Shown here: positions 2,730-61,400 of the stretch, one piece after another
Numbering within the stretch: position 1 is the stretch's first letter
Layout of the letters: each line of letters opens with the position of its first letter
Assembly (NCBI GenBank): GCA_963848295.1
Contig: CAWKDB010000009.1
Coordinates: forward strand, 1 to 64,000
DNA: 64,000 nt
Direction: 5' to 3'
From: an uncultured delta proteobacterium
Lineage (GTDB): Bacteria; Myxococcota_A; Polyangia; Haliangiales; Haliangiaceae
Translations under genes and position numbers: made by a program
Notes under the pieces: model-generated
Told to the model about the DNA's origin: nothing
What the model saw: the letters and a program-made list of their open reading frames with translations, nothing else
The model's database searches: none

Positions 2730-2872
2730 TGAAGCGATCCATCGATGGAAGGTAGCCGCGAGTGCGCGCGTGTCCGGTGGTCTACTCTCGTCAGCATGTC
2801 GAACGAGGAGAAAACGAGAGGGCGGTTGACGGCGCCATGGAGGTCTACGGAACGGCGGTAGATAAGGCGCTG

Positions 2873-40959: not shown

Positions 40960-42356
40960 ATGACCGCCGATGCTGCTCGTCGACGACGAGCCCGGCGTCC
41001 TGTTCACGCTGACCGAGGTGCTGACCGAGCGCGGCCACCGCGTGGTCACCGCGCGCTCCGGCGACGAGGCGCTCGGCAAGCTCGAGGACGCCGACGCGGT
41101 CGTGACCGATCTCTCGATGCCCGGCATCGACGGCCTCGAGCTGATGGCGCAGATCGCGGCAGCGCGATCCGACGCTGCCGGTGATCCTGCTGACCGCGCA
41201 CGGCAGCGAGCGCGTCGCGGTCGCCGCGATGAAGCAAGGCGCGTACGACTACCTCGCCAAGCCGTTCGACATCGACGAGGTCGCGGTCGTGATCGAGCGC
41301 GCGCTCGAGGCGCGCCGGCTGCGCGTCGACAACCGCCGGCTCGCCGCCGAGCAGACGCTCGGCCGCCGCATCATCGGCGCGTAGCGGCCGATGCGGCGCC
41401 TGCTCGAGGCCACGAGCCGCGATCGCGTGCGCGCGACGTCACCGTGCTCGTGCGCGGCGAGACCGGCACCGGCAAGGAGTTCGTCGCCGAGCTGCTCCAC
41501 GCGCAGTCGACGCGCGCGAGCAAGCCGCTCGTCCGGTTCAACTGCGCCGCGCTGCCCGCCGAGCTCGCCGACGCCGAGCTGTTCGGCCACGTGCAAGCGG
41601 CGCGTTCACCGGCGCGACCGCCGGCGCGGCCCGGCTTCTTCGCGCAGGCCGAACAGCGGCACGCTGATCCTCGACGAGGTCGGCGAGCTGCCGCCCGCCA
41701 TGCAGGCGAAGCTCCTGCGCGCGCTGCAGGAGGGCGAGATCCAGCCGGTCGGCTCGGGCCGCATCGAGAAGGTCGACGTGCGCGTCGTCGCGTCGACCAA
41801 CCGCGACCTCGCGGCCGACGTCGAAGGCCGGCACGTTCCGCGAGGATCTCTACTACCGGCTCGCGGTCGTCGAGCTCGTCGTGCCGCCGCTGCGCGATCG
41901 CAAGGACGACATCCCGGCGCTCGCCGAGGAGTTCGCGCGCCGCTACGGCGAGCGGTTCGGCCTCGGGCACGATCGACGCTCGAGCCCGCGCTCGTCGACG
42001 CGCTCGTGCCGCGCCGACTGGCCCGGCAACGTGCGCCAGCTCGAGAACACGATCGCGCGCCTCGCGGCGCTGTCGCGCGGGCGGCGCGATCGGCGCTCGC
42101 CGACTACCAGGCCGCCGAGTCGGCGGCGAGCCGCACGGCGGCGCGAGCCGATCGCAGCGACACGACCGAGCCGCTGCCCGACGCGCGCAACGGCCCCTCG
42201 CTCAAGGAGCAGGTCGAGGCGTTCGAGCGCGGCCTCGTCGCGCGCACGCTCGACGCGACCGGCGGCAACCAGTCCGAGGCCGCGCGCCGGCTCGGCGTGA
42301 TCCGCGTGACGCTGATCGACAAGATGAAGAAGTACGGGCTGGGACCGAAGAGATAA
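40960..42356 (+). CDS. Sigma54-dependent response regulator, NtrC family (frameshifted)
   Basis: LLVDDE..TDLSMP receiver; [38 protein letters not shown]; Fis-type [21 protein letters not shown]. Confidence 0.92.
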
Positions 42357-42381
42357 CGCGGGCTTGGCGGGCGCCCAGATC

Positions 42382-42401
42382 GTTTTCTCCCTGTTTTCTC
42401 C
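42382..42401. repeat. Tandem direct repeat GTTTTCTCC x2 (11-bp period); putative integrase arm-type sites
   Basis: Copies at 42382-42390 and 42393-42401, at the compositional boundary. Confidence 0.6.
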
Positions 42402-42509
42402 TTTCGGGGTCTCGGCGCCGCGCTTGCGAGCTTTGTTTCGTTCGCGGCGGCAAACGGCTCCTGAGCGTCGAGGAGCCATTGTCAGGGCGCGGTTCTAGAA
42501 TCGTCCGTC

Positions 42510-45500
42510 GTGGCACAGCTGGTTGATATCGGGATCCTCACGATCCGGGATGACGAGCACCAGGCGCTGCTGGATGTGTTCCCGGACGAGTTGGCGGACG
42601 GATATCTCAAGGGAAAGCATCGCGAGTATGGGCATCGTCGTGCCGACGCCGGAAAGCTCGGCAGCTACTCGCTCGCGATCCTCAAGCAGCACGAGCAGGG
42701 CAACGGTGAAGCGCAGGACGCTGCGCGCGATCTTCTGGAAGACGTCGAACCGTCCCTGCTGTTGGTCGTCGGGATCGCTGGAGGATTTCCCTCGGATGAA
42801 CTCACCCTCGGTGATGTCGTCCTCTCCACGAGGATCAACGACTACTGCGTGGAAGCGAGAAAAGAAGGAGCTGAGGCGCAATACGCCCTCTCCGGCGGCC
42901 CGATCGACAGACAGATCCAGGGTGGCATCTCGAACCTGGCAGCCCGCACAAAGGATCTCGGTGACTGGACCGCTGGCCTTTCTCAGAAGCCCGCCGTGGA
43001 CTGGATGCGTGAGGGTCAGCTGTACGGACCAGCAAAGTGGCAAGAGGAGCTACGGGAGAAGCTCGATGCTCACTACGGGAAGGACGCTATCCCCAGGCCG
43101 CCGCGCTTCACATCGGGCGTGATCGCGTCGAGCGACAAGCTGGTCAAGGAGCCTGAACTTCTGTTCCCTTGGATCCAGACCGCGCGCAACCTGCTCGCCG
43201 TCGAAATGGAATCGGGCGGCGTCTACCGCGCAGCTCGCGGGCGCTGTCCGATGCTCTCGATCCGCGCACTCAGCGACATCGTCGGTCTCCGTCGGGCAAA
43301 TGCGTGGACGAAATATGCGGCGGAAGCGGCGGCGGCATTTACGCGCGCCTACCTGCGCACGTCCCCCATTGCCCCAAGCGCTAGCAAGCCTACCCCGCCA
43401 GCATCGGGATCACCGCCGAGCAACATCGGCTCGACCACTCACAACGCGCTAAACATCTCGGGCAGCCACGTCGAAGCAGCAAACATCGTCGTTGGTGTCC
43501 AACAGAACTACAACATCGCGTCTTCAGCGCCATCGTTGGATGCTATTGCCAAGCTTGTCGAGCACGGACTACTGGATCCGGCAGCCGAGCAACTCGAATC
43601 CTTGGAGAGGTCCTCTTGGGCCTCGATGAGCAAGGTTGAGAAGTATCGCCATAGAAAGCTGCAGGGACGGGTTCTGGTCTTGCGTGGCCAGCCGCGAGCG
43701 GCCGCCGACCGCTACGATGAAGCGGCTAGCTTCATTCCTGAAGACGAGAAATCACACATCCATAGGATCGATGCGCTCATGCTCCGTGACGACATCGTGG
43801 GTGCACATCAACTCGCCACTCAAGTCGTCGCCCAGTTTCCGAGCCTCATCTTGGCAAGGGCTGTCTGGATACGAAGCGCGCCCACGACACGACTATCGGA
43901 CGACCTCCTGCCGAAGCCTTGGGACGGGCTCGATCCTGACGTTGCAAGTGCTCTTGCCGACCGGCTCATCAACGAGAACCGAGCCAAGGATGCGCTAGAG
44001 GTCCTCCAGCGCGCGCATTCGCCCGGCGTCAACCTCCCCTTCTGGGGCACGTACTCAAATGCGGCACTCAGGTATCAGGAACAACTCGGTAGAGAGAGCG
44101 GCCCGCCTGAACTATTGGCGGAGGGACGCGCTGCCTTGGAGAAGGCACTGAAGTTGTGTGTTGGAGAGGGATTCAGGGACGGCAAGGTCCAGCTTCTCCT
44201 GAACATGTCCTACGTGCACCGCCTCAACGGAGATCTAGACGGAGAGTGGGATTCCCTCCGAGAGGCAGCTGCGATCAGCCCCAAGAACAAAGACGTTCGC
44301 CTCCGAACGGCGAAGGTACTCGTGGACCGAGGCCGCGAGACGGAAGCGATCACGATCTTTGAGAGCCTGCTTGAGGACGGGCCGGACTACGCTCCATTTC
44401 TCCTGGGCGTCTCCTTGGCCAAGCGGAACGCTGAAGGAGACCTAGAACGAGCGGCACAGATGTTTGAGCAAACGGCGACGCTCATCACGCCGAGCGTGCC
44501 CCTTCTGACACTGGATGGAGCCGACGGCTTCGTCCAGGTTTGCCGCGCGATGAAACAGTGGGACCGAGCGCTGGCCGGATGCACTACGTTCGCCCCGATT
44601 CTTGGAGAGTTTCGCTCCAGGGAATTAGCTGCGCGGATACATCTCGAACGAGGTGACAAGGCCTCCGCGGAACGGGTTCTAGCCGATGCAGTTGAGTGGT
44701 GCACAAACCCCGAGCAACAACGAATCCTCGGTCTCCTATCCGCGCACGCGGGAAACTACGAGCGCGCGGTAGTGCAACTCGAGTCTGTCACACCCTGGAA
44801 CGAGTGGACCGAGTCGACGGCTGCCTTACTGAGAGCAGCGCAGGCGACGGACCGCGATGAACTCACGATACGAATCTGCCGCCAGCTGCGGGAATCTGGC
44901 ATCTCGCGCAATTCCGTGATCGATGCCGAGGCGGAGCTCTTCAAAAACGAGGAGAAACGGGAGCTGCGATTGAGCTGGTCGAGCACGCTCTCGCCACGAA
45001 GGAGGACCCGTTCCTGCGGCTGAGACTTCTCGACGCTCGGAGTTTGCGGCTGGTCGTCCGGAGCTTATCGAACGAGATCCCGCTCGCCTCCCAAAACCTG
45101 GCGACGGCGATCCACGTGTCTCGATGATTGCTGTCGGCGTCCTCCGCGCCGCCGGCTCGAACGACGCAGCAATTCGATATGCCTATGACGCGTTTAGAGC
45201 CAATCGCTCGAGTGCCGACGGCTGGCGCGCAATTCTCGAAGCATTCAACCCAGCAACGGGCCCACAAAATCATTCAGAACCTGATCGCGTCAGCGCGGAT
45301 GCCGCCGTATTGGTTCGCGAAGGCCAGAATCGACGCTGGGTCATCGTAGAGCCCCGCGCCCCGGAGATCGAGCATGACGAGCTGGCGCCAGATGCTCCCC
45401 TGGTTGTCGCGATGCTTGGGAAACGTGTTGGTGACGAGTTCGAGGTGGCGCGCAACTTCGCGCTCCCTCGGACGTATGTCATCGAAGAAATTCGAAGCAA

Positions 45501-46751
45501 GTACGTAAGGACGTACCATCGGTGCCTGGAGCAGTGGGAGGAGCAGTTCCCTGGGTTGCCGGGACCAATCATGATCGAGGTCCCGGAGAACCTGGCGGAG
45601 AACATCGAGGAACTCACACATCAGTTGCTACCGGCACTCCAAGCAAACGCGCGCAGGTCCGAGGAGATGTTTAGGCTGTACCAGGAAAAGCCTGTCACGC
45701 TTCAAATGCTCGCTCGTGGTCTAAGATGCTCGGTCTTTGCCGCGATGAGTCAGCTGGCAGCGGACTCGGACGTCGAACTCAGGTGCACGGGCGCAGCCCC
45801 GGAGGAGATCACACGCGTTCTCGAGGCTTTGAACAGCGGCCAGAAGCTGATCGTCGAGACCACGGCCCTGTCCACCCTCCTTCTGATTGGAGACACGGAG
45901 CTCCTTTCCAAGCTCAAGGGCCGATTGCTCGTTGCCCAGGCAACGCTTGACGAGTTGCGTGCACATCGACGCGAAGTGAGCACCCGTGGCGAGAGCTTTC
46001 TGGGCATGCACGACGGCCAGCTGACGATGCGAGAGGTCAATCCGGAAAGCCGAACAAGGTATCTAGACCACGTCGACGAGCTACTCGCGCTCTTGGCCGA
46101 GTGCGAGACCTTCCGCGAAGAACGACACGACGGGATCGCGCCTCACGACTGGGACCGGCTTGTGAACATTGGTGGCGCTGGCGCTGTGGAGTCCATCCAT
46201 CGCGCCATGCGCACCGGCGAAGCAATTTGGTGCGACGACATGGTCTTGGCGTTCGTGGCACATCAACGAGGTGCGCGAGTCGCTTGGACTCAGCTGCTAT
46301 GCCATCACCTGATGCTTCGCTCCGAGCTCGACTTCGACCATGCATATCGGATCAGCGCCAAGCTCGTCGGCTCGCGGTTCGTTACGACGCATACAACCCA
46401 AGGTGTATTTCGAGAGGCGGCTCGCCTTGCGAACTGAACCCCGACAACTGGCCCTTGAACCAGCATCTGCGGCTGTTCGAGGCGGCACCGTGGCCCGACG
46501 CCGCGACCGGCCTGCTTGCCGTGAGTGTACTTCGCGAGTGGTGGCGTCACGCCCCTTCGGACGCATCTGCGAACGGTGTCACCGTTACCCTGTTGGATCG
46601 CGTCGCCCTCAGGCCGAACGGAACCGACGTCCTGATCCCTGCGATCAGTGGGGCACTTGAACGCGCATTCGGACTCGACGTCCTAGGCTATCAGCGCGCT
46701 CGCGGGGCGTTCGATGCCTGGCGTCGAGCGAGGCCCCTTCGTCAGCTGTAG
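42510..46751 (+). CDS. Nucleosidase (PNP/MTA-SAH) - TPR - GreA/B C-terminal - PIN fusion, ~1400 aa, candidate defence protein (frameshifts near 44950-45050 and 46435)
   Basis: [47 protein letters not shown] helices follow. Gre[46 protein letters not shown]. ORFs 42510..45023, 45124..46437 and the 3' part of 46101..46751 bridge by manual reading. Confidence 0.85.
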
Positions 46752-46926
46752 CCCCGTGCTAGTTTTGTCCGATGCTGCGAACCTGTGGAGCAGGTAGTTC
46801 CGCAACCCCAGCCAAGTCGACGTACACCGCGGCGTACTGCCGGTAAACGAGACATCGCGCAACCGGGCACGTACTTTCGGTGGGGATGCGACCGAGCGTG
46901 ATGTAGAGCGGGTGGGCCAGTGAACT

Positions 46927-47682
46927 TCAGCCACCGATCTCTGAGGTCGTGTGGGTCCGGGAGAAGATGAACGCGTGGATGAGCGGCACGAGAGCGTTGT
47001 TCACGCGGTCGGCTAGTAACACCAGCTCGCGGTCAGCTTCCGGCGCTCCGAACTGCAGACCCAGCATCATCATTTTCTGCTGGGCGGCAGCGTCAGCGTA
47101 GAAGAACCGCGTGCCGTCCATGTCGGGGCCGTAGCAATACTGTGCCGTCTGGTTGGCCGGGCCCGGCGTGTCCTTCGCGTCGATGACGAAGTGCTTTTTG
47201 AACCCTTCGCCCAGGTCCTTCGGACCGTAGTGGAACGAGGCGTTATTGCGGATCCGGTTGAGCAGCTGCGCCGTGTTGCCGCTCGTGTCTCGAGCGGCAA
47301 GGAAGAAGTCATCCCAAGCTCTACGGTTCTCTGACCCGAGCGTGGCGAGGAGCTGCCGGAACTCCGTGCCGAGAACGACGGCCTCGTTTTTCTTGATCAC
47401 GACCATGACCTCGTGGAGCACGCCGGCGAGCCACCGATGTATCTGCGTCATTGCGCCGCGCCACTGCCCCGCGTTGGCTGACCAGTCCGTCTTCGCGGGT
47501 CGCCCCATCGCGATCAGGTATTGCTCGAACAGCAGCATCCCCTTCATGTCGTTGAAAGCGAGCGCGAACGCGAGGAACACTTTGCCGAGCTGATCCGAGT
47601 CGTGATGGACGAGGGTACGCGGGTCGACGTCGACCTTCTCAGACAGCTCCCACGGCCGCAGCTCGTTCGGCGAAGCCGTCAT
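46927..47682 (-). CDS. HEPN-motif helical protein, putative RNase effector
   Basis: LLNRIRNNASFHY (Rx5H HEPN-type motif); GGAG RBS before the ATG at 47682. Confidence 0.65.
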   Translation of the reverse strand: MTASPNELRPWELSEKVDVDPRTLVHHDSDQLGKVFLAFALAFNDMKGMLLFEQYLIAMGRPAKTDWSANAGQWRGAMTQIHRWLAGVLHEVMVVIKKNEAVVLGTEFRQLLATLGSENRRAWDDFFLAARDTSGNTAQLLNRIRNNASFHYGPKDLGEGFKKHFVIDAKDTPGPANQTAQYCYGPDMDGTRFFYADAAAQQKMMMLGLQFGAPEADRELVLLADRVNNALVPLIHAFIFSRTHTTSEIGG

Positions 47683-47753
47683 CGTGGACTCTCCGAACAG
47701 GAACTGGGCAAAGGCCCGCTTGAGCCGCGCGAAGGGCACCAATAACGGCGCTG

Positions 47754-50074
47754 GCGGACTGATCTGATCTCGCGGGCTTGCGCAGCTGCGGTCGGATCCG
47801 CAGAAAGGGGAACTTTTCCCGGTCGCGCCGGAATTTCGGAACGGTGGCGATTGTCTTCAGGGCGATGGAAGCTCTCGACCTCGCCTTGCAGGAGTTGCCG
47901 CGGTCATCGAAGTACGAGGTCCGTCGGTTTTCGGACGATGGCGCAGTCGTGGTCGATGGCACGATCGCGAACGTGTTCATCGGCGGCACGCTGATCGGCA
48001 CGTTCGACGAGGAGGACGATGATCGCGGACCGAGGAACGTCCTCGTGGTGACGCTCGCGAAGTCAGGGCAGCTCCATCTGCAGCGCCTGGCGGCGGCGTT
48101 CGGGCTCGACGACGAGTATGTGCGGCGACTGCGGCGTAAGGAAGAAGCAGGCGGTTTCGGCGCGGTGCTGGGAAAGCGGCAAGGCAAGAACTCGACGGTG
48201 AGGCCGGAACTACGCGCAGCGTGGTTCGCGATGTTCGACGCAGGACAGACGCCCAAGGATGCACACCGCGAGCAGCCGCGGAAGGGACGACATTCGTACT
48301 CGACGGCGTGGCGCATCCACGACGAGTGGAAACGCACCCGAGCTGCCGAGCCGACGAAGCGCACGCTGCCGGCGGAGCCGCGGCCTCCGAGCGAGGGTCA
48401 GCTGGTCTTGTGGCAGACGGCAACCGCGGCAACCGCCGCCGAAGACCTCGTAATGCCCGAAGAGCCGAGCGCAGAGATCGTGCCGATGACGGCGCAGCCG
48501 GTCCGTGGCGGGAAGATGATCCAGCACGTGGGCAGCTGGATGCTACTTGCGCTCGCGGGCGAGCTCGGGCTCCACGAAGAAGCGCAACATGCGTTCGAGA
48601 GCCGAAATCGCGACGGGCTGAGGATCGCGCTCGACGCGGTGATCTGTGCGCTCGCGATCAAGCAGTTCGTCGTCGAGGGCGTGCGACGACTCGCGACTCC
48701 GACGGGGCCTGCGCTACTTCGTGCCGAGCGCGTGCCGACGCCCAGTGGCGTGCGCAAGCTCCTGGGGCGGCTGCTCGAGCAGACCGACGGTGGCGCGGCG
48801 CTCGACGCCCGGATGGCGGCACGCTTCATCGCCGCGGCCCGCAGCGACGACGGCCCCGCCGTCTTCTACATCGACAATCACATGCGGCCCTACACCGGCC
48901 AGCACGTCGTGCGAAAGGGCTGGCGGATGCAGGACCGTCGGGTGCTACCCGGCACGAGCGACTATTACGTGCACGACGAGGATGGTCGGCCGGTGTTTCG
49001 CGTCGCGGTCCCGTCGCACGACAGCCTGACCACCTGGCTGCCACCGCTGGCCAAGCGATTGCGCGAGGCGCTCGGCAAGGACGAGCAGATCGTGCTCGCC
49101 TTCGATCGCGCCGGCGCCTTTGCCGAGCCGCTCGCTGACCTGCGCGACACCGGCTTCGACTTCGTGACGTACGAGCGCAAGCCTTACCCCGAGCTACCGG
49201 CGAGCGCCTTTTCTCCGACGACGATTGCCGGAGACAAGGTCGGGCTGCACGAGAGTCGGCTGCGCAACCTCGGCGCCGGCCGTGGCCGCATTCGCCGGAT
49301 CGCGATCCGGACCGAGGACGGTCGTCAGGTAAACTTCCTCGCGAGCTCGAAGCTGCCGGCCGCGCAGCTCGTCGAGATCTTGTGGCATCGGTGGCGCCAA
49401 GAGAATGGCTTCAAGCACGGCGTCGAGCGCTGGGGCATCAACCAGCTCGACGGTCGCAGCGTCGAGCCGTATCCGCCGGGCACGATCATTCCGAACCCGA
49501 GACGCCGTCGGCTCGATCGTGCCTTGCGCCTCGCACGCGTCGCCGAAGGAGATGCGCGGCGCGACCTCGCGCGCTTCGCACCGACCGACAAGCGCCACGT
49601 CGCGGCCGAAGTGGACCTCGCCGATGCGCTCGAGCGGCAGCACCGCCTCGAGGATCTCCGGCCATGGCTCCCGTCGCATGCCCCAGTAGAGGAGACCGAG
49701 CTCGCCGGCAAGCTCGTCCGCCACGACGGCAGACTCAAGACGATCATCGACGTGATCCGCGTCGTCTGTGCGAACGCGGAGTCCGACCTCGCGTCGATGC
49801 TCGCACCGCACTTGCGCCGGCCGCGTGAGGCCAAGAAGCTCGTCGGGAATCTCCTCGCGGCCCCCGGAAGCGTCGCCATCACCGACGAAGCCGTCCACAT
49901 TCGGCTCGCGCCGGCCGCGACACCCTCCGAGCGGCAGGCGATTCAGCATCTCTGTACTGCCATCAACGAGCGCCGACTCACCCTCCCAGGAGATCCGAAG
50001 CGCCTCCCGCTACGCTTCAGCCTCCACCTTCAGTAGATGCTCCGTTATGAACTCTGGGGCACTGGTCAGTCCGC
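47754..50074 (+). mobile_element. IS copy 2 (intact), imperfect 11-bp TIR GCGGACTGA(T/C)C
   Basis: GCGGACTGATC at 47754-47764 and GGTCAGTCCGC at 50064-50074; single transposase ORF; no obvious target-site duplication, so ends are tentative. Confidence 0.8.
47865..50036 (+). CDS. DDE transposase (IS4-clan-like), 723 aa, with N-terminal HTH
   Basis: FYIDNH, LAFDRAG, RWRQENGFK (D-D-E with R-x3-E-x3-K helix). Confidence 0.88.
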   Translation: MEALDLALQELPRSSKYEVRRFSDDGAVVVDGTIANVFIGGTLIGTFDEEDDDRGPRNVLVVTLAKSGQLHLQRLAAAFGLDDEYVRRLRRKEEAGGFGAVLGKRQGKNSTVRPELRAAWFAMFDAGQTPKDAHREQPRKGRHSYSTAWRIHDEWKRTRAAEPTKRTLPAEPRPPSEGQLVLWQTATAATAAEDLVMPEEPSAEIVPMTAQPVRGGKMIQHVGSWMLLALAGELGLHEEAQHAFESRNRDGLRIALDAVICALAIKQFVVEGVRRLATPTGPALLRAERVPTPSGVRKLLGRLLEQTDGGAALDARMAARFIAAARSDDGPAVFYIDNHMRPYTGQHVVRKGWRMQDRRVLPGTSDYYVHDEDGRPVFRVAVPSHDSLTTWLPPLAKRLREALGKDEQIVLAFDRAGAFAEPLADLRDTGFDFVTYERKPYPELPASAFSPTTIAGDKVGLHESRLRNLGAGRGRIRRIAIRTEDGRQVNFLASSKLPAAQLVEILWHRWRQENGFKHGVERWGINQLDGRSVEPYPPGTIIPNPRRRRLDRALRLARVAEGDARRDLARFAPTDKRHVAAEVDLADALERQHRLEDLRPWLPSHAPVEETELAGKLVRHDGRLKTIIDVIRVVCANAESDLASMLAPHLRRPREAKKLVGNLLAAPGSVAITDEAVHIRLAPAATPSERQAIQHLCTAINERRLTLPGDPKRLPLRFSLHLQ

Positions 50075-50398
50075 AGATGCGGACTCGTTGGCTACAGCCT
50101 CGACCTCAGCTTCCTCGACGTCGATTGCAGCGGGCCGCGCTCCCGCTCGCACGAGAGTGGCTGCCTGGTCCCGCGTGACGATGAAGGACTCGGTCTCCTT
50201 GCCGTCGCGATGGACGTGGGCGACGCGGTGGCCGCGAGAGAGGTGGTCTAAACGGCCGCGAGCGTCTGCGGTCGCGACCTCGGGGGTGGCGCCCACGCCA
50301 TGGGCGAAGACGGTGCTGATGCGCACCTCGTGCGCGGGATTCCGGGCAGCGAGGTCGGCGAGCGTGCGCTGGACTCGAGCTTGGGTCTCGGGGTTCAT
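50066..50398 (-). pseudogene. Hypothetical gene truncated by the IS
   Basis: AAGGAG RBS then MNPETQARVQR...; the stop codon lies inside the IS right TIR. Confidence 0.55.
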
Positions 50399-50603
50399 GG
50401 AGTACTCCTTCGGACTGATCGCATGGTGCCAGCGGGGGCTGACATCGGTGTCCCTGCCGATCTCACGGCAGGAGTTCGAGGGCAACCGCAAGTACGGTGA
50501 CGATGATGCACCGACGACGTCGTCGACTGGCGTCCCGCGTGATGGCCGGCGAGTCGCCGTTCGCGTTGACGTACGGAAATGGCGACTCGTAGTAGTATTG
50601 GGA

Positions 50604-51299
50604 ATGGGGCATGGACGGCGCTGGATGGACATCCTGGCAATTGCCGCATTGCTTGCGAGTTGCGGCGCCACCGGCGAGATGGGCGTTCCTGGATCGGAGG
50701 GAGCGCAAGGCTCAGCGGGGTCCCAAGGACCGCAAGGGCCAATCGGACCGGCTGGTCCTGAGGGCCCTGCCGGTCCCTCGACGGGGATTCGCTGGGCGGA
50801 TGCGAACGGAACGCTCGTCCCGGGAGCCTTCGGACTGACGGAGAGGCTGCCCCTAGACAACACGACGTTCTCTGGGACCGAAGGCTATCGAGAGGCTCTG
50901 TACATCGATGGAAATGGCATTGTGTGGCGTTTGGATCCCGGAACTGGGACCGTCTCCGGCGATCCAAGAACCGCAAGTCAGCGGCGCATTGTCAGCACCA
51001 TCTTTGCGATGCCCAACTGTGCGGGCGCACCACTTTTTCGATCAAACTACGAAACGTCAGGCATTCTCATCCCGCGAATCGCAATAACGATCGACCTTCT
51101 CGCCGGAGTGTCGGTGATCGCCCTCAACGACCAACCGACTCTGCAACAGACCCAATGGTGCTCCTTGTACGACCCCGCGCAGAGCGGTTGTCGAACATTC
51201 TCAGGATGCGGTACGACACTCGCGTACCCACAGAGCAGCGTCCACACGCTTACGCCACCAGTACTCAGCGGGCTCGCACCGTTTCATCCGATTCTATAA
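50604..51299 (+). CDS. Lipoprotein with short collagen-like (Gly-X-Y) repeat
   Basis: ALLASC lipobox; about 13 GXY triplets (GATGEMGVPGSEGAQG...GPAGPS); C-terminal Cys-containing domain. Confidence 0.75.
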   Translation: MGHGRRWMDILAIAALLASCGATGEMGVPGSEGAQGSAGSQGPQGPIGPAGPEGPAGPSTGIRWADANGTLVPGAFGLTERLPLDNTTFSGTEGYREALYIDGNGIVWRLDPGTGTVSGDPRTASQRRIVSTIFAMPNCAGAPLFRSNYETSGILIPRIAITIDLLAGVSVIALNDQPTLQQTQWCSLYDPAQSGCRTFSGCGTTLAYPQSSVHTLTPPVLSGLAPFHPIL

Positions 51300-51418: not shown

Positions 51419-52571
51419 TCATGCCGCGGTCTGCGCCTCATTCGCGACAGACCCCGTCGCGCTAACGCCGTCTTTCGTCGGCGCCTTGCGCTTCGTCAGC
51501 GCGTAGACAGTCCCTGCGCCCGGTAGCACGAACGACACGCGGTGGTAGTCCTGCTCCCACGCCTCAGGCGCGAGGTGCGCATAGACCTTCTGCGTGATGG
51601 TCACGTTCGCGTGGCCGAGGATCTTCGAGAGGCGGAAGATGTCGCCGCCATCGAGAACCCAGTGGGACGCGAACGTGTGGCGCAGGTCGTGGAATCGCAG
51701 CTGCTCCGGTAGCCCTGCCCGCTTCGCGGCCTGCTTGAACGGGAACCGCACGCCAGGCTTCGAGCGCGGCTTGCCGTCCTCGCCCGGAAACACGAGCTTC
51801 GCGCCGCCACGTTTGAGCGCCAGCTCGCCGCAGGAACGGCACGAGCGTATCGAGGATGGGAATGTGGCGAGCCTTGCCTGATTTCGTCGTGCCGTGGCGA
51901 CCTCTGTGCACCGCGATGAGCCGGCGCTCGAGATCGACGTCGGCCCACTGGAGGTGCAGCAGCTCGTCGAGGCGCATCCCGGTGCCAACGGCGAGCGTCA
52001 CGATCTCGCGGATGCCCTTCGGGCACTCGACCAGCAGCTTCGTGATCTCCTCGCGGCGTCTGGATCCACGTGTAGATCCCTGCGTCCTTCTCCTCGATCC
52101 GCGACACGCCATGACATGGGTTGACCTCGACCCATTCGCGATCGACGAAGTACGAGAACGCCGACGACAGACACGGTGAGGTTGCCGTTCACCGTCGTCG
52201 CCGCGAACTGCGTTGCCTGATCGTCGCGCCACTTCATCACGTGCGGCTTGCGCAGCGACACGATCGGGACGGAGCCGAGCTTGGGCAGGATGTAGATGCG
52301 GATGCGGTCCGTGTAGCCGCCATGCGAGCGCGAGCCACTCGCCTTGAGTGACGCGAGCCACTCGTCGGTCGGCCTGCTTGACCGTGCGATCGAGGTCCAG
52401 CTCGGGCGGCAGCTCGCCCGCGGTGATCTGTTCCTGCGTGACGATGTAGCGACGCTCGGCGATCTTCGCCTCGCGCTCGCTCTCAAAGGTCCCGACGTAG
52501 ACCTTCTTCCCGTCCCGACGGCCATAGACCTGCCAGGCGATCCCACTCTTACCGTCGTACTTTGTGATCAT
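51419..52571 (-). CDS. int: Tyrosine recombinase/integrase with N-terminal arm-binding domain (frameshifted)
   Basis: GKKVYVGTFESEREA N-domain; GTGMRLDEL (R), TKSGK (K), FHDLRH (HxxR), LGH, VYAH (Y). Confidence 0.92.
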
Positions 52572-52645
52572 GACAACGCCTCGTGGGCGCGCGGATCTAC
52601 GCACGCCGAAAAAGGCTCCGTCGCCGGCTTCACGCGGCCGAGTAT

Positions 52646-54295: not shown

Positions 54296-55501
54296 CTACT
54301 TGCCCGGCTTCCCAGTAGTCGTCGCCTCCGTCGGCGGGCTTCCCGGCGCAGTCGTCGAGGTGGTGGACGTCGGCGGCCCCACCAGAGAAGGCCTCGGTGA
54401 CCGCTGAGTCTGGAGCTGTGCGAGGGTAGCGCGCACGGTCGCAGCCGCGTCGGTGACGCTGAGCGCCCTCAGCTCGTTGAACCACGTCGCCTGTTCGGCC
54501 TGGGTCAACTCGCTGGCGATGGTGGCAACGAGCACCTGCTCCTCGCGACTGAGCGCGTTCTTCACCGCGAGGAAGTGCGCCATGCTCACTGCGTCGGTGG
54601 GAACAGCGACAGGAGGCGTCGTCACCGGGGGCGCCGGCGGCTGAACGCGCGGCAGGGGCGCCGGCGGCGCTGCCACAGCCTGAACCACCGTGACCTGCGT
54701 CTGAGCCTCGCGCTCTCGCTGACCCTCGGCGTATGCCTTCCTCATGTCGAGGACCGAACCGAGCGACGGCATCTTGCCGCTGAACTTGTTGATCAGCTTC
54801 GACACGACGTCGGACGCGACCTGCGAGACGATCTTGTTGATGTCGAAGCCCGGGGGCATCGGGAATCCGCCGAACATCGTGGGTGCGGTGCCGTGGGCGC
54901 CTCCTCCGCCTTCGTCATCGTCCTCCTCGTCCTCGTCGTCGTCCTCGTCGCCGTTCTCATTCGCGGCGTTGCGGAGGGCCGACGGCGGGAGGTCGCGCTG
55001 CTTGAGCGCGTAGAGGCCAGTCCCCGTCGCGACGTTCAGCATCGTCGTCATCGCCTCCATCAGCTGGGGCAGCCGATCGACGGCGCGCATCGAGATCTCG
55101 GCGTTCTGCCGCAACGCTTCAGCATTGAGCCGAACCGCTTCGATCACGGCCTGCCCGAGCCCAGCCATCGTGCTGTCGACCCGCGCATCGCTCGTGCGCT
55201 CGATCGCGTGATCGCCCGAGGCGTTGCGCTCTGCCTTGATCACCTGGATGTACGCGGGCGGCACGTTCTCGACGACCTTTCCGTCGTCGCCGATTCCATC
55301 GAGGCGGTACTTGCCGGACGCCGTCACCGCTTCGTGAAGGTCATCGAGGTCCGCCTCGATCGGCAAGGTCAACGGGCGACCCTCGCGCGAATACACCAAC
55401 TCGGGTGCACCGCGCGGCTTGAGGCGCCGCACCCGCCACGTCGTCACCGTCGACGGAACCTCGAACGTGTCCCCACTCATCGTGTACGCCAGCTCGCTCA
55501 T
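54296..55501 (-). CDS. Hypothetical protein (globular N-domain, acidic tract, Pro-rich linker, helical C-domain), first gene of the int operon
   Basis: GAAGGAG RBS; MSELAYTMSGDTFEVP...WRVRRLKPRGAPELVY...GKYRLD. Confidence 0.75.
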   Translation of the reverse strand: MSELAYTMSGDTFEVPSTVTTWRVRRLKPRGAPELVYSREGRPLTLPIEADLDDLHEAVTASGKYRLDGIGDDGKVVENVPPAYIQVIKAERNASGDHAIERTSDARVDSTMAGLGQAVIEAVRLNAEALRQNAEISMRAVDRLPQLMEAMTTMLNVATGTGLYALKQRDLPPSALRNAANENGDEDDDEDEEDDDEGGGGAHGTAPTMFGGFPMPPGFDINKIVSQVASDVVSKLINKFSGKMPSLGSVLDMRKAYAEGQREREAQTQVTVVQAVAAPPAPLPRVQPPAPPVTTPPVAVPTDAVSMAHFLAVKNALSREEQVLVATIASELTQAEQATWFNELRALSVTDAAATVRATLAQLQTQRSPRPSLVGPPTSTTSTTAPGSPPTEATTTGKPGK

Positions 55502-56018
55502 GCAATCTCCTTCGATGAAACTGACTCTACGCGCTCGGTCTGACGTACCGCTCGTGCGTTCAGGTAACCGCCGAGAATGAGGCCGAATCCCGGGATTAGA
55601 CCGCTTGTGTGAAGAACCTGTCCGCCGCGCGGACACACTTGGCGCCCCGTTCCGCGTTCAGGACATCGCTGCACAGGGGTTCGCGCTGCGCCCATCTTGC
55701 CTCGATCTTTCGGCCGCGAGATGGCCGACATTTGGCCTCTGGATATCCTCCGGAATCGTTCGGCGAGCGCGGGCGCAACACCGCAAAACGCGCGCAGCGC
55801 GCGGAAATTCGCGCCTCCTTTGCCCGAGCGATGATTCGCGGTTCTATCTCGGCCCGTGACGCATGATGATCGGGATCGAGATGGAGGCGTTGCGGTGGCC
55901 TACGGCGCTGCGGCTGCACAGCCGGCAAGCTTGGAGTGGCCGGTTCACGCGTGCGTTTCGCAAGTGACCGGCATGATGCCGCTCGCGCAGCGAGCACGAC
56001 TGGAGCTATCATCGGAAC

Positions 56019-56693
56019 ATGCGTTGGGCGTGGCTCGGGTTGCTGACGGCGTGTGGGGGCTCGGAGCCCGCAGTTCCCGCACCCGATGCCGCACAAGCGG
56101 TCGATCTCGACCGCATCGACATCATCGTGTCGTCGCGCTGGGTCTATGTGTTTCCGCAGTACTCGCATCCGTTGACCGCCGAACAGCTCGACATCCCGGA
56201 CATCGGCGGGTGTGGCTCGTTCACGCGGGACTGGTCGTCGAGCTATCCGACCGCGCTCACGTCGATTGTCATGGATGGCATACCGCTGCGATCCGATGCG
56301 ACCTCCGATCCGTTCGTCTCGTTCACGGGCGGCGTCACGACCGCAACCGTGTTTCACGCGACCGACGCCGGCCGGACGATCGACGTTCCGATTCACGCAG
56401 GTCCGTATGTCGGCGCGACGGATCCGGTCGTGACGAGCTCGGATGCCGGCATGACCGTGCAGTGGAACGCGGCTGGTGCGGACTCGGTGTTCGTCGGCAC
56501 CGCGGGTGGCATCTTCGGCCTCTCGGGCTGCCGCGTCTCGGGCACCGAGAGCTCGTACACGTTCCAGTTTCCGCAAGGTGGCCAGGGCGACGTCTATGTC
56601 GAGGCCTTCGCCACGCCCGAGGTGTACGACACGACTATCGGCCCGGTGCGCGTGTTCTACGGCGATGTCGCGACGACGCCGTTCGGGATGTAG
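56019..56693 (+). CDS. Lipoprotein, hypothetical
   Basis: MRWAWLGLLTAC lipobox; TATCAT 6 nt upstream. Confidence 0.75.
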   Translation: MRWAWLGLLTACGGSEPAVPAPDAAQAVDLDRIDIIVSSRWVYVFPQYSHPLTAEQLDIPDIGGCGSFTRDWSSSYPTALTSIVMDGIPLRSDATSDPFVSFTGGVTTATVFHATDAGRTIDVPIHAGPYVGATDPVVTSSDAGMTVQWNAAGADSVFVGTAGGIFGLSGCRVSGTESSYTFQFPQGGQGDVYVEAFATPEVYDTTIGPVRVFYGDVATTPFGM

Positions 56694-56781
56694 CGTTCGC
56701 GATTTACGCCACTCGTCGCAATCGCCTAGATAGATGGTGTGTTCTATCGGTGACCAGCTGGCGTAACATCCACCGCTGCTC

Positions 56782-58063
56782 GTGCAGTTGATCCGATGTG
56801 CCGCCTCGCTCCTCCTCGCCGCCACGGCATGCGGTGGTGGCCCGACACACTCCCCAGCCACGGGAGACGCCTCGACCGCTGGCTCTGGGTTTCTCGTCTA
56901 CACCGAGGCCGGCACTGATCGCGTCATGCGATTGGACCTACAAACGGACGAGAAGGTCGTGATCGATCCAGGTCAGTTCGGATCGCTCGCGATCGCGCCG
57001 GATCGAAGGTATGTCGCGTACGTCGGCACGGACAAGATCCCGAAGGTCGCCGACTTCGCCGGTAGCGTGACGCCGCTCGCAACGGAACCCGCCGGTTGCA
57101 GCGGCACGCCGGTGTGGGGCCCCGGCGATTCGATCTCGTACTGCGTGGACAACAGCAGTGGCTCGGGAACCGTCCTCGTTCCATCGATCGGCGCGCCGAC
57201 CATGTTCTTCGGCGATCAGTTCGCGGTCACTGCGGATGCGTCTCACATCCTCTTCGTCGACCGGCAGCAGCCGGGCGGGCCGAGCCAGCTCGGAGACCTC
57301 ATCGAGGAGACCGCGACCGGTGCCGATCGTCGGGTGTTGCGGTCGGGCATGGCTGATTTCATCATCGCGCTCACGCCAGACGGCGCCAGCGTGTTGGTCT
57401 ACGAGGCACAAGCCGCACCGCCATATCGCGCGCTGCGGATCGCCCTCGCCGACGGCAGCGTACAGCAGGACCTCAGGAGTGTTCTCGATCGCCGGCACGC
57501 TCGCCGGCAGCTCGCCGTTCTCGCCGGACGGGAAGCAACTGCTCGTCTGGACGAACAGCGCGCTTGCGGCACTCGACATCGCGACCGGCACGACGCGAAC
57601 GCTCGCGACGTTCGACACACCGTTGCATGCGCTGGCCGGCGCGTGGATTGATGCGACCCGCATCTTGTACTACCGGCAAGACGATCTGACGCCCCCCGGC
57701 TCCGATGTCGGCATGACGACCGAATCCATCTGGGTCAGCGACGGCACGCCTGCGCAACTCTTCGCTGCGACCGGCACGAACACGCAGTGTGACCTCCGGT
57801 CCGTATCGCTCTCCCAGCAGCTCGCGGCGGCGCGCTGCCCGGATCCGACGCTCATCGACTTCGCTGGGCAGACGATCGTCACACATCCGGGCTTCGACAC
57901 CGTGGGGATCACCGGCGACGGGCGTCTGATCTCGATCGCGTTCGACGGCACCGTCAGCATGACTGGCACCGACACGACGCGTACGCTCGTCGTTGCTGAG
58001 ACGCCTTTCCAGCATACGACGCCGATCGATCTGCTCGATCCGTACGCCGTGTTTGCACCTTAG
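56782..58063 (+). CDS. TolB-like beta-propeller lipoprotein (frameshift near 57470)
   Basis: LLAATAC lipobox; IAPDRRYVAY, LTPDGASVL and FSPDGKQLL PD40-like repeats. Confidence 0.75.
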
Positions 58064-58264
58064 CCAGTGACAATATCCCAGCGGCTAAGCTGTGCGGACC
58101 CAGCGACTCGATCTCGGCCGCATGTGAGCTGAGAGGCGGGTGCGTGTCGCCGCCTTGTGGCCCGCAGCAAAACGCGGCAGGCCCTGTGCGCCGAGACGAT
58201 AAGCGTCAAGGTCTCACCAAGCAACGCACGCTCCACGGCGTTCTCTGAGGGGTTAGTGTTGGGA

Positions 58265-60775
58265 GTGGCCGGCTCGCGCAAGATCTGGTGGTTCGGAGCA
58301 CTCATTCTGCTAGCCGTCGCCGGCGCGATCGTCGGCAACGCGATGACGTGCGGTTCAGGGCACGATGAACCGAGCGCGACGGCACGAGGCTCCGCCGATG
58401 GCAGGAACGCGGCTGTCAGACAGAACACCCACCCGACGTCGGCAAATGCCGCGGAGCCCGAGGACCCACCCGGCAACCTGCGGCTAGAAGGCCAGGTCAT
58501 CGACGAGCAGCAACAGCCGGTGGTGGGCGCCGACGTAACGCTGTGGCCAAGTGAGAGGCATGCGATCAGCGACACGAGCGGCTCGTTCGCGTTCGACAAG
58601 CTGATCAAGCGCAGGTATCAGCTGGCCGCTCGCAAGGATGATCTCTATGCAGGCGTCTCGCGGGTCCGTCTCTTCGAGACCAGCGAGCCGGTAACCCTAC
58701 GAATGCGTCTTGGCGCCAAGCTCGTCGTGCATGTTATGGAAGACCGAGCGCCGATCGAAGGTGCCTTGGTCATCCTGGACGACCAAGCGAGAGCGACGAG
58801 TGACCGTTCGGGCACCGCCACGATCGGCGGCGTTGGCCCTCACTTCCATCACGTCGAGGTCACAGCCGATGGTCGCGCTCCAGCGCGCATGTCGCTCATG
58901 CTCGGAGACGACGCGGGTGGGATCGTCGACCGCACAGTGACCCTTCACCACGGTGCCTCTCTAAGCGGCGTCGTCGTGGGCCCCGACGGGAAGCAGGTGA
59001 CGGATGCGACCGTGCAGGTCGACGCTGGAGAATGGAGCGGACGCGCAACCTCGGACGGAGCCGGAGCGTGGCGCTTCGATGCGCTGGGCGCTGGCAAGGT
59101 CTCGTTGAGCGCAACCTCGAAGGCGCTCGGGCCGGCGCCTGACGTCGAAATCGAGCTCGATGGTGTCACTCCACGTCGGGACATCGTGGTGCACGTCGCC
59201 GTCGATGCACAGCTCATTGGTACGGTGACAGACGCGAGCGGCACACCGATCGCCGGCGCGACCGTGATAGCGAGCGATTCCACGCGTCGGCCGTATCCCA
59301 ATCGCAGTGGCACCGACGGTCGATTCGAGTTCCTCGGCATCAAGGCGGGCACGTACGAACTGGTCGCACGAACGGACAGCCAGGCGTCCCCGTCCACGCA
59401 TGTGACGATCGCAAATGACCAGCGTGCCGAGGCCAAGCTTGTCGTCCAGGACTCGGGCATTGCCGGCACTGTCGTCGACGCCAAAGGCACGCCGATTCCC
59501 GAGGCGCGCGTGAGCGCGATGCCGGACGGCCGCGTCTCGATGGCGAACTTCTCCAACGACATCACCGACTCGCGCGGTCACTTCAATCTCGGCGGCCTGG
59601 AGCCTGGAGACTATCGACTCGACGCCAGCTGGCCCAATCAGACAGACCGGCGCGTCGGTGCGGGCGAGCACGTGAAGGCCGGCAATCGGAATGTCAAGCT
59701 GGTCCTCGAGACTCCTGCAACGGTCACCGGCCGCGTGCTTCTCGATGGCTCGCCCGTCACGAGTTACGGCCTCCTCCTAACGGACCATCCCGAGTTCTCC
59801 TCTAATGGCGCCCCCAGCGGCATTCACGCTGCGGACGGTCGCTTCACCCTGCGCGGCATCCAATCGGGAAGATGGGGAATCGTGCTGATCGCTCCGGGGA
59901 CGGCTCGCAAGACCATCGACGACATCAAGATCGAACAGGGGAAAACGACCGACCTCGGCAACATCGCTCTGTCACACGGGCAACGAATCAGCGGGCACGT
60001 CCGAGACTCCGCGGGATCACTTGTCGCCGGTGCAACGGTGACCTTCGGGCTCATGGTGTCAGGCCTCGACGCGGGGCCGCTCGAACGCTCGTTCCGTGGT
60101 CAGTTCCAGACGACGACAAACGAGGCAGGGGGATACGCCTTTGATGGAATCGCTCCGCTTGGAAACCCTCGTGCGGATCAGATCTCCGCCGCTCATCCCG
60201 ATCGCGGCGCCTCCCCTCCGAGCAGCGTTCCCGTTGGCGATGGCGTTGTCGACCTTGTGCTTGCCGCGACTGGTGGGATCGACGGGACGGTAGAGGGCTC
60301 GGCGGAGAGCCTCGGCATCGTCAACGCGAGCACCACCAGCGATCGCGGGGGCAGACTAACGGCACGCGTCGATCGCTCAGGTGCGTTTCACTTCGATGGG
60401 CTGCCGGCCGGCGACTATACGCTCTCGATGTTTCCCTTGCCCGGACGGACGGGACCAGCGCCGGCGTCCGTGACCGTAGTCGCGAACCAGCGGGCAAAGG
60501 CAAAGCTCGTCGTGCCGAACGGCAACGTCACGCTCATCGTCAAGATCAGCGGTGGCACCTGCACGGGCGTCATGTTGATGCCTCCCGGCGACGGGCCATT
60601 CAGGTGGGGCGACTATCGCGGATTCGCGAGCTGCTCTGGCGACACCGCTGAGTTCGATGGCGTGGAGCCTGGCAGCTATCGAGTATGTGCGGGCGCTGTG
60701 AACTGCACACCGGTGACGGTGTTGCCGGCCCCGGAAAAGCAGACGGTTCAAGTCCAGAACGGCTCAGGGCATTGA
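58265..60775 (+). CDS. Carboxypeptidase-regulatory-like (Ig-like) repeat protein
   Basis: N-terminal TM; repeated G.V.D..G.P..GA.V...TD..G.F...L..G.Y units. Confidence 0.85.
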   Translation: MAGSRKIWWFGALILLAVAGAIVGNAMTCGSGHDEPSATARGSADGRNAAVRQNTHPTSANAAEPEDPPGNLRLEGQVIDEQQQPVVGADVTLWPSERHAISDTSGSFAFDKLIKRRYQLAARKDDLYAGVSRVRLFETSEPVTLRMRLGAKLVVHVMEDRAPIEGALVILDDQARATSDRSGTATIGGVGPHFHHVEVTADGRAPARMSLMLGDDAGGIVDRTVTLHHGASLSGVVVGPDGKQVTDATVQVDAGEWSGRATSDGAGAWRFDALGAGKVSLSATSKALGPAPDVEIELDGVTPRRDIVVHVAVDAQLIGTVTDASGTPIAGATVIASDSTRRPYPNRSGTDGRFEFLGIKAGTYELVARTDSQASPSTHVTIANDQRAEAKLVVQDSGIAGTVVDAKGTPIPEARVSAMPDGRVSMANFSNDITDSRGHFNLGGLEPGDYRLDASWPNQTDRRVGAGEHVKAGNRNVKLVLETPATVTGRVLLDGSPVTSYGLLLTDHPEFSSNGAPSGIHAADGRFTLRGIQSGRWGIVLIAPGTARKTIDDIKIEQGKTTDLGNIALSHGQRISGHVRDSAGSLVAGATVTFGLMVSGLDAGPLERSFRGQFQTTTNEAGGYAFDGIAPLGNPRADQISAAHPDRGASPPSSVPVGDGVVDLVLAATGGIDGTVEGSAESLGIVNASTTSDRGGRLTARVDRSGAFHFDGLPAGDYTLSMFPLPGRTGPAPASVTVVANQRAKAKLVVPNGNVTLIVKISGGTCTGVMLMPPGDGPFRWGDYRGFASCSGDTAEFDGVEPGSYRVCAGAVNCTPVTVLPAPEKQTVQVQNGSGH

Positions 60776-60802
60776 GCGTGCGCGCACGAGGTGGGTAGTC
60801 TG

Positions 60803-61324
60803 ATGCGTGCGTGGCTCCTATGTGCGTTTTGCGCGTGCTGGCATTCGGAAGCCCTAGCGCCAACGCCAACCCGAGCGCTCGTCGCGATCAGGAAGCCGCC
60901 ACCGGCCCACGAACGCGACCTCGACCTCCAGCCGGGTGACGATCCGTCCCAGCTCTCGACCTTTCTGTGGAGGTCGAGAGATCCGATCACTTCGCTCGTC
61001 GACGGGCCAGTGGTAACCGTCGACATCGCCACTGCCACGGTGGACACGCGCTGCGGAACCTCCGCGGAAGATGTGGTTCGCCGCTGGACCGCGTCCGTAC
61101 GCGATCCCGACGGTGAGATGGTGTGGTGTGAGCGAGGGAAGCGCAACGATTACACCCTGTGCATGCAGTGGAACTCGACGCACTCCGAGCTCCTGATGCT
61201 GCTCTTTCGCTACAGCGACCGCTGGCAACTGTCCGCGATGATCACGGGGCCGATCGGCCACGTGGCCGCGTGGCGTAACGGCTCGGCCCTGTTCGCTGCG
61301 TTGTCCGCTGCACGCTGCCCGTAA
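60803..61324 (+). CDS. Cys-containing secreted protein/lipoprotein, hypothetical
   Basis: MRAWLLCAFCACW signal-like N-terminus. Confidence 0.55.
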   Translation: MRAWLLCAFCACWHSEALAPTPTRALVAIRKPPPAHERDLDLQPGDDPSQLSTFLWRSRDPITSLVDGPVVTVDIATATVDTRCGTSAEDVVRRWTASVRDPDGEMVWCERGKRNDYTLCMQWNSTHSELLMLLFRYSDRWQLSAMITGPIGHVAAWRNGSALFAALSAARCP

Positions 61325-61400
61325 TCTCCGAATCAGAGCGGGCTCCACGTCACGCGACACACCGCTGCGCAGGTCGCGCCCCGCGACCACCAACAAGCGC

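Follow-up and report, generated by a model that had tools for sequence, protein, structure and literature searches.

A nucleosidase-bearing TPR-GreA/B-C-PIN gene on an integrative element of an uncultured Haliangiaceae bacterium as a probable single-gene abortive-infection system

TPR-GreA/B-C-PIN (TGP) proteins combine a tetratricopeptide repeat (TPR) array, a GreA/GreB C-terminal domain (GreAB-C) and a PIN domain, and have been described with 13 alternative effectors that include PNPase (Kaur et al. 2021, eLife 10:e70394, PMC8195603). The mode of action proposed in the accessible text of that paper involves docking on RNA polymerase, cleavage of transcripts, and an effector that serves as a back-up (PMC8195603). 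In its Figure 2-source data 1, 40 matches to the string 'PNPase+TPR' correspond to 20 accessions, 12 with the order PNPase+TPR+GreAB-C+PIN and 8 with an extra HTH (PMC8195603); the prediction of this architecture dates from 2021. Here we describe a gene of the same architecture in a 64,000-nt stretch of DNA (the window; G000:C9:1-64000, G000 being the genome, assembly GCA_963848295.1, and C9 the contig, CAWKDB010000009.1) from an uncultured delta proteobacterium of the Haliangiaceae. In this soil bacterium, the gene is carried by an integrative element and probably constitutes a single-gene abortive-infection system of the TGP type with a nucleosidase effector, the four single-base breaks in its reading frame being assembly errors. 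The observations behind this reading are that the gene is a single one, that its four domains fold as expected, that the nucleosidase motifs are intact, that its occurrence is mobile and patchy, and that N-terminal domains are exchanged on the core.

The only TGP protein found experimentally tested in the literature, as far as the accessible texts go, is a member coupled to a Bell-domain protein. This protein, Agp of Escherichia coli ECOR25, blocks phage T5; to do so, it templates an amyloid motif on a killer protein with a Bell domain (bioRxiv 10.1101/2024.11.07.622273). According to the available part of the same preprint, defence is lost in GreA/B-C mutants of Agp, and the Agp PIN mutant is unstable (bioRxiv 10.1101/2024.11.07.622273). 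An earlier note on this DNA, made from the sequence alone, had assigned the gene to a family known from computational prediction; the assignment stands but understated what was known, since the exact architecture is listed by Kaur et al. and Agp has been shown to be defensive.

PNP-type domains serve as effectors in other defence systems. Cap17 and DtcC are activated by a cyclic nucleotide or by phosphorylation, and PNP domains linked to short prokaryotic Argonautes (short pAgo) or to NLR-like proteins are placed in the Cap17 clade of ATP nucleosidases in the accessible text of Rousset et al. (bioRxiv 10.1101/2023.01.24.525353), whose main text does not contain the words 'PIN' or 'GreA'. The BASS amyloid motifs, in turn, occur as pairs in adjacent genes, and PNP-UDP is noted as an amyloid-controlled effector in fungi (Dyrka et al., bioRxiv 10.1101/2020.01.06.895854, as far as the text is accessible). 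The features of the gene described here are as follows.

42510..46751, plus strand: PNP-TPR-GreAB-C-PIN gene, about 1,413 amino acids (aa), with four single-base breaks read through
42510..43364, plus strand: PNP_UDP_1 nucleosidase, aa 1-285, with E16, E232-M233-E234, R252 and S255-D256
43440..43511, plus strand: 24-residue motif rich in N, G, I and V, aa 311-334, after a low-complexity P/S/G-rich spacer and before the first TPR helix
43530..45280, plus strand: TPR array (TPR_19, 48 bits; TPR_14; others), colinear with the relative P0001, with three breaks in its last part
45283..45495, plus strand: GreA/GreB C-terminal domain, PF01272 (GreA_GreB), 31.3 bits against a cut-off of 26.9
45850..46263, plus strand: PIN domain, PIN-TPR-GreABC PF20698, 57.5 bits against a cut-off of 27.8, with the acids E245, E277, E356, D371 and D372 (numbered within the open reading frame 45124-46437)
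46264..46748, plus strand: helical C-terminal region, which crosses the fourth break

The region contains three overlapping long open reading frames (ORFs) of 837, 437 and 216 aa on the plus strand, between a GTG start at 42510 and a stop codon at 46749-46751. Frameshift-aware alignment locates four breaks, namely a base missing at about 44935, an extra base at about 45032, another at about 45048, and a base missing at about 46433-46436; their net shift is zero, leaving 4,239 nt or 1,413 codons. The identical four breaks are obtained with each of the guide proteins P0001, P0002 and P0005 (69, 66 and 60% identity), all are single-base events, and the aligned frames hold no further stop codon. 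When longer proteins were searched with the second ORF, seven matched, five of them single chains of 1,343-1,444 aa, and intact one-ORF relatives with PNP, TPR and PF20698 are P0001, P0002 (1415 aa), P0005 (1424 aa), P0006 (1343 aa) and P0007 (1444 aa). P0001 is colinear with the whole of 42510-46751, and the part past the fourth break is 81% identical to its residues 1309-1411. Judged from these alignments, the fusion is one gene in a single frame. The intact relatives rule out separate genes, and their open frames rule out programmed frameshifting. The initial picture of three ORFs bridged by frameshifts into one protein of about 1400 aa was right as to the single gene; the breaks number four rather than two, and besides the three long ORFs the joined frame takes in two small segments of about 31 and 5 codons.

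As a control for the breaks, seven neighbouring genes of the contig were aligned in the same frameshift-aware manner to their counterparts on contigs C11 and C2. These genes show 15, 17, 0, 6, 14, 8 and 4 breaks, or 64 in 10.9 kb. Ordinary host genes are among those affected, which include genes for an efflux pump, for a kinase and for a regulator as well as the integrase gene. Because the surrounding genes hold so many breaks, the four in the fusion gene are most likely assembly errors.

All four domains proposed beforehand (nucleosidase, TPR, GreA/B-C and PIN) were recovered by Pfam profile search above the cut-offs given. The protein has the TPR, PF01272 and PF20698 core of the TGP family, a described effector at its N-terminus, and homology over the whole length to the PNPase form of Kaur et al., with which it shares the domain order, the PNPase effector and the stand-alone gene. 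The Kaur et al. member WP_067776912.1 aligned to a set of seven relatives with a probability of 99.8 and an E-value of 4.9e-29 over 1,184 columns (hhalign), and to the window piece with an E-value of 6e-25. Its identity to the protein is only 22%, however; its PNP domain lacks the EME word and belongs to a different PNP sub-family. The host group described here is not found by name among the 20 rows of Kaur et al., which are predictions only.

A model of the GreAB-C and PIN domains together reached a pLDDT of 94.7. By VIA-align, its GreAB-C part superimposes on E. coli GreA (1grj) with Z 11.9 and a root-mean-square deviation of 1.7 Å over 71 residues, and its PIN part on the PIN folds 2mdt (Z 9.6) and 1o4w (Z 9.3); a Foldseek search with the two-domain model returned nothing under an E-value of 0.001, its best rows being GreA, Gfh1 and PIN. 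The first PIN acid is E rather than D, as had been claimed. Of 153 relatives, 113 have D at this position and 30 have E; E277 is matched by E in 84, E356 in 120 of 151, D371 in 147 of 151 and D372 in 150 of 151. The suggestion that the E makes the PIN domain regulatory is weak, given its occurrence in 30 of the 153 relatives and the retention of the other acids, and the same frequency rules out a PIN domain that is dead because of this residue. Probably the domain either acts as an RNase, at full or low strength, or contributes structurally to the sensor.

The nucleosidase domain matches PNP_UDP_1 (PF01048) at 45 bits against a cut-off of 25.1, and its AlphaFold2 model (pLDDT 93.7) finds 5′-methylthioadenosine/S-adenosylhomocysteine (MTA/SAH) nucleosidases as best Foldseek matches (E-value 5e-13). 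The expectation of a full motif set was borne out, in that the EME word, R252 and the SD word are intact and E232, M233, E234, R252, S255 and D256 are invariant across 93 aligned relatives, with E16 nearly so. These residues are seen in alignments with MTA/SAH nucleosidases (MTAN), and we take their catalytic roles to be those known from MTAN enzymology. The scores fall far short of the curated MtnN cut-offs (46.3 of 169 bits for PRK05584 and 31.4 of 73.8 for TIGR01704), which rules out a housekeeping MtnN. The best PADLOC match is the effector model 'PN-superfamily' (E-value 1e-15).

The closest relatives of this domain are attached to other chassis. The nucleosidase matched 397 longer proteins; the 116 that follow the TGP forms in the list share 60-70% identity with it and carry CHAT, WD40/NACHT, TIR, deaminase or a further domain without a Pfam label; an APAZ-like C-terminus is present in 70 of the 116 by a crude word test, and PADLOC confirmed it in all three that were checked. 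At one locus of another genome (L068:984-4228, G016), a PNP-APAZ gene whose PNP domain is 63% identical stands directly upstream of a short pAgo (E-value 4e-148). Within the genus, 12 of 90 genomes contain the module, one of them up to seven times. Those close relatives of the PNP domain that bear a name come from Kofleriaceae, which suggests a Kofleriaceae-like myxobacterium as the host. By these comparisons the nucleosidase domain is a mobile module, and its 60-70% identity to effectors of short-Argonaute and NLR-like systems is new. Like Cap17 and DtcC, the protein uses PF01048 as a swappable effector with the catalytic Asp motif kept and with relatives in short-pAgo and NLR-like systems; PNP_UDP_1, the SD word that includes the catalytic Asp, and the EME word are all present, and D256 would correspond to Cap17 D472 by way of the MTAN alignment. 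Since Rousset et al. put PNP domains linked to short pAgo and NLR-like proteins in the Cap17 clade, ATP is the likeliest substrate by analogy.

The GreAB-C/PIN half matched 1,561 representatives at an E-value of 0.001, and Pfam was run on 52 of 150 listed matches. The N-termini of these 52 comprise TIR, SIR2, REase, calcineurin-like, GT4 and PNP domains. In four TGP proteins (P0058, P0084, P0109 and P0151) the N-terminus is hydrophobic and membrane-like. This nucleosidase shares only 23-30% identity with the PNP domains of eight other TGP proteins, and on a quick tree of 54 cores the PNP-bearing forms are scattered over several places; because of this divergence and scatter, the tree suggests repeated recruitment of PNP domains to TGP cores. 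Closer by, G005, of the same genus, has a core with 53-58% identity that falls within the same clade (support 100). This core is not accompanied by PNP; it forms the C-terminal end of a 2,895-aa protein encoded in an EAD1/trypsin/MoxR/vWA operon. As read from this tree and alignment, the N-terminus has been swapped within one clade on the same core, which was not known before. The operon (L008:54-13000, on G005:C23) consists of EAD-trypsin, EAD1, MoxR AAA and vWA genes followed by the gene for the TGP-tailed protein, and is a MoxR-vWA ternary conflict operon with TGP as its tail; some 5 kb ahead of it there is a related integrase. At another locus (L009:8828-13624, minus strand, G041), a 1,598-aa TGP protein has an N-terminus that appears by eye to hold two nucleotide-cyclase-like domains with no Pfam label, and its gene is followed by three tandem radical-SAM-like genes with His-Glu repeats.

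The occurrence of these cores is patchy. Of 61 genomes, 3 contain PF20698, the present one counted; locus scans of genome contigs gave no locus with the single protein and one with an alignment (G005), and three loci were found in metagenome contigs. There was no match in 50,697 phage records, and of 13 distant plasmid matches the four examined had no annotated small upstream gene like Bab, the partner of Agp. The gene stands alone between an attachment site and a convergent gene, and relatives at the few loci compared (L001, L008, L009 and L087) have differing neighbours.

The gene's place as the first in the cargo of an integrative element, claimed in the earlier note, is borne out by attachment repeats, an integrase and an empty site in a relative. 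The two features that delimit the relevant part of the window are these.

42316..42439, plus strand: left attachment-like repeat, comprising the 3′ terminus of an NtrC-like (sigma-54) regulator gene plus adjoining downstream DNA
51419..52604, minus strand: tyrosine integrase (PF00589) with four breaks, whose relatives adjoin the same attachment core

The partner copy of the repeat lies beyond the window at G000:C9:68421-68543, with 79% identity over 125 nt and 45 of the first 47 nt identical; the direct repeats flank the element and restore the end of the target gene, and the orthologous regulator gene on C11 has no insertion. Elsewhere in the genus, 6 of 13 loci with a related integrase have the 22-nt attachment core, with 0-3 mismatches, at most about 1.3 kb from that integrase; the count leaves out one locus from an unpublished genome. 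Because repeats flank it and the core recurs beside related integrases, the region is, by sequence comparison, a 26-kb tyrosine-integrase element that targets the ends of regulator genes. The fusion gene is its first ORF, 153 nt past the regulator stop, in about 9 kb of cargo between attachment site and integrase, and its GC content is 0.61 versus 0.73 in the preceding 20 kb. This integrase family of the genus targets 3′ ends of sigma-54 regulator genes, and these regulator genes have dozens of paralogues in the genome.

By analogy with Agp and Cap17, the likeliest sequence of events for the protein would be as follows. The TPR/GreAB-C part would sense infection, through a phage-engaged RNA polymerase or a phage protein; Agp requires an intact GreAB-C. 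The protein would then oligomerise, possibly driven by the linker motif. Its PNP domains, brought together in this way, would release adenine from ATP or dATP in the manner of Cap17 and DtcC, and phage production would cease in an abortive infection. The gene is valuable as a test object for the sensing target of TGP proteins, for contact with RNA polymerase and for RNA cleavage by the PIN domain, and a one-gene form with adenine release as its read-out, together with intact relatives of 60-69% identity, makes for easy assays.

The linker motif, absent from the earlier note, is new and appears, from its composition, to be amyloid-signalling-like. Its identity to four relatives is 54-67%, versus 17-38% in the preceding spacer. 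P0007, P0009 and P0010 have related forms; P0010 is without an effector and carries the motif N-terminally, as Agp does. For its distribution a composition score was used, a crude measure devised after the motif had been seen, with a threshold of 0.6 at the linker position. Among TGP proteins, this threshold was reached by 11 of the 15 that bear a PNP domain and by 7 of the 87 others; of 1,464 core segments taken as background 0.14% reached it, and of 78 linkers that follow sister PNP domains on other chassis, 2 did. Without the nine first-seen sequences, the counts are 4 of 8 and 6 of 85, and the enrichment then keeps its direction over 12 settings (p from 0.05 to 2e-5). In P0084, P0109 and P0058 the TPR array is preceded by an N/G/V/T-rich motif of the P0079/P0085 kind.

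We take class C02 of the BASS motifs to be BASS2, from its size. By eye, the length (20-40 aa), composition and spacing of the linker motif resemble this class among BASS1-10 (PMC8086366; bioRxiv 10.1101/2020.01.06.895854, in the accessible parts), but unlike BASS motifs it is internal and unpaired, and it lacks the central Gln of most C02 sequences shown there. The accessible text of Kaur et al. makes no mention of such a motif, and there was no match to it in the atlas or in Pfam. With Bab and Agp the locus shares the TGP core, a short N/G/V/I-rich motif directly before the TPR array and a mobile defence setting; it differs in that Agp has no N-terminal enzyme and templates a separate killer through a shared BASS11 motif, whereas here the effector is fused in cis.

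Several findings speak against an amyloid motif. The kin are not independent and form about two lineages on the quick tree; four PNP forms have no motif, and P0039, by eye a cut PNP form, scores 0.55 and was counted as non-PNP. A hidden Markov model (HMM) built from the first-seen set misses the P0079/P0085 type and P0014 and gives P0012 only 2.7 bits, so that on this comparison these motifs are similar to the first-seen set in make-up rather than demonstrably homologous. In six frames of G000, a genome that is 85% complete and indel-rich, which limits the search, the motif HMM finds only this gene (E-value 6e-9; the next 0.75) and no partner motif, in which the locus again departs from Bab and Agp; likewise, an insensitive search with only four candidates gave no shorter protein with the motif. 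A short beta-rich oligomerisation element of non-amyloid kind would look alike. It is a tentative idea, with the odds against it, that the motif is an amyloid or beta-solenoid signalling element acting in cis, whose stacking forces the nucleosidases into an active oligomer. In such a switch, sensing of infection would make the TPR-GreAB-C-PIN cores cluster, the motifs would stack, and the tethered nucleosidases would become an active oligomer. This would explain why the motif occurs with nucleosidase and membrane-type N-termini and hardly with nuclease forms. If true, amyloid signalling would extend from two-gene pairs to single-chain effectors and would be tied to the destruction of ATP, and it would become apparent how a sensor can activate a nucleosidase with no second messenger.

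A number of points weigh against a single-gene abortive-infection system that drains ATP. Agp is without activity in the absence of its partner Bab, at least in the accessible part of the preprint (bioRxiv 10.1101/2024.11.07.622273), so a TGP core alone need not protect, and no test of a PNP-bearing TGP protein was found in the literature, most subscription papers lying outside the search. The residue equivalent to Agp S628 appears to be Ala here (aligned by eye); it is Ser in P0001, P0002 and P0005 and His in 81 of 152 relatives. The clade also departs from the family consensus from H to W at 34 and from R to W at 343. Among solved structures, the best matches of the nucleosidase are MTA/SAH enzymes, which would suit a system of the same kind with another substrate (SAM, SAH or MTA, NAD-derived compounds, or modified nucleotides) or one that makes a signal rather than draining ATP, as would the low identity of this nucleosidase to the PNP domains of other TGP proteins. 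The scores far below the MtnN cut-offs argue otherwise, as do nearest relatives that are short-Argonaute, CHAT and NLR-like effectors, the settings described for ATP nucleosidases, and this alternative seems unlikely.

The published model of Kaur et al. would invert the roles, with GreAB-C docking on transcribing RNA polymerase, the PIN domain cutting phage transcripts so that the living cell is protected, and the nucleosidase merely a back-up. The GreA C-terminal fold and the PIN fold are both present, and D371, D372 and E356 are kept at the frequencies given above, but Agp shows no Bab-independent activity and the first PIN acid is E, as it likewise is in 30 of 153 relatives; this arrangement is accordingly rated as quite unlikely. 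The breaks, finally, are known from the assembly alone, and real decay of the copy is conceivable, the gene then being a pseudogene on an ageing element that contains an insertion sequence and whose integrase is likewise broken in the assembly. The density of breaks in the gene is 0.94 per kb, however, as against 5.9 per kb in the seven neighbours (one of which has none), the breaks are of single bases with no other stop codon in the aligned frames, and the motifs are intact, so that decay is judged very unlikely. The reading preferred here remains that of an intact TGP system with a nucleosidase effector.

Two further features of the element lie downstream of the fusion gene.

46927..47742, minus strand: convergent gene whose product (about 250-270 aa) contains an R-N-x4-H word, a HEPN-like lead only
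47742..49934, plus strand: insertion sequence with a DDE transposase (ORF 47778-50036, 752 aa), 96% identical to window positions 2862-5038

The convergent gene has no Pfam, PADLOC or NCBIfam match. Its atlas neighbour is 'putative HEPN AbiU2-like' (score 0.93, with recognition below the mark of the tool), and it is possibly a second defence gene. No PADLOC match was obtained for three cargo proteins tested. A consensus scan found no sigma-70 promoter in 42200-47000. A TAGAAT hexamer at 42496-42501 lies 8 nt before the GTG start of the fusion gene with no clear ribosome-binding site nearby, and the transcript is possibly leaderless. Contig C9 is collinear with C11:329000-416000 at only 70-82% identity and is rich in single-base indels; it is probably a contig of a related organism placed in the G000 bin. 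Copies of the DDE insertion sequence with about 74% identity are found elsewhere in the genome. Further cargo comprises a collagen-repeat protein at 50037-51299 (plus strand), a 446-aa orphan at 54296-55636 (minus strand) and, at 55856-63877, lipoprotein-like and repeat-rich proteins of secreted look.

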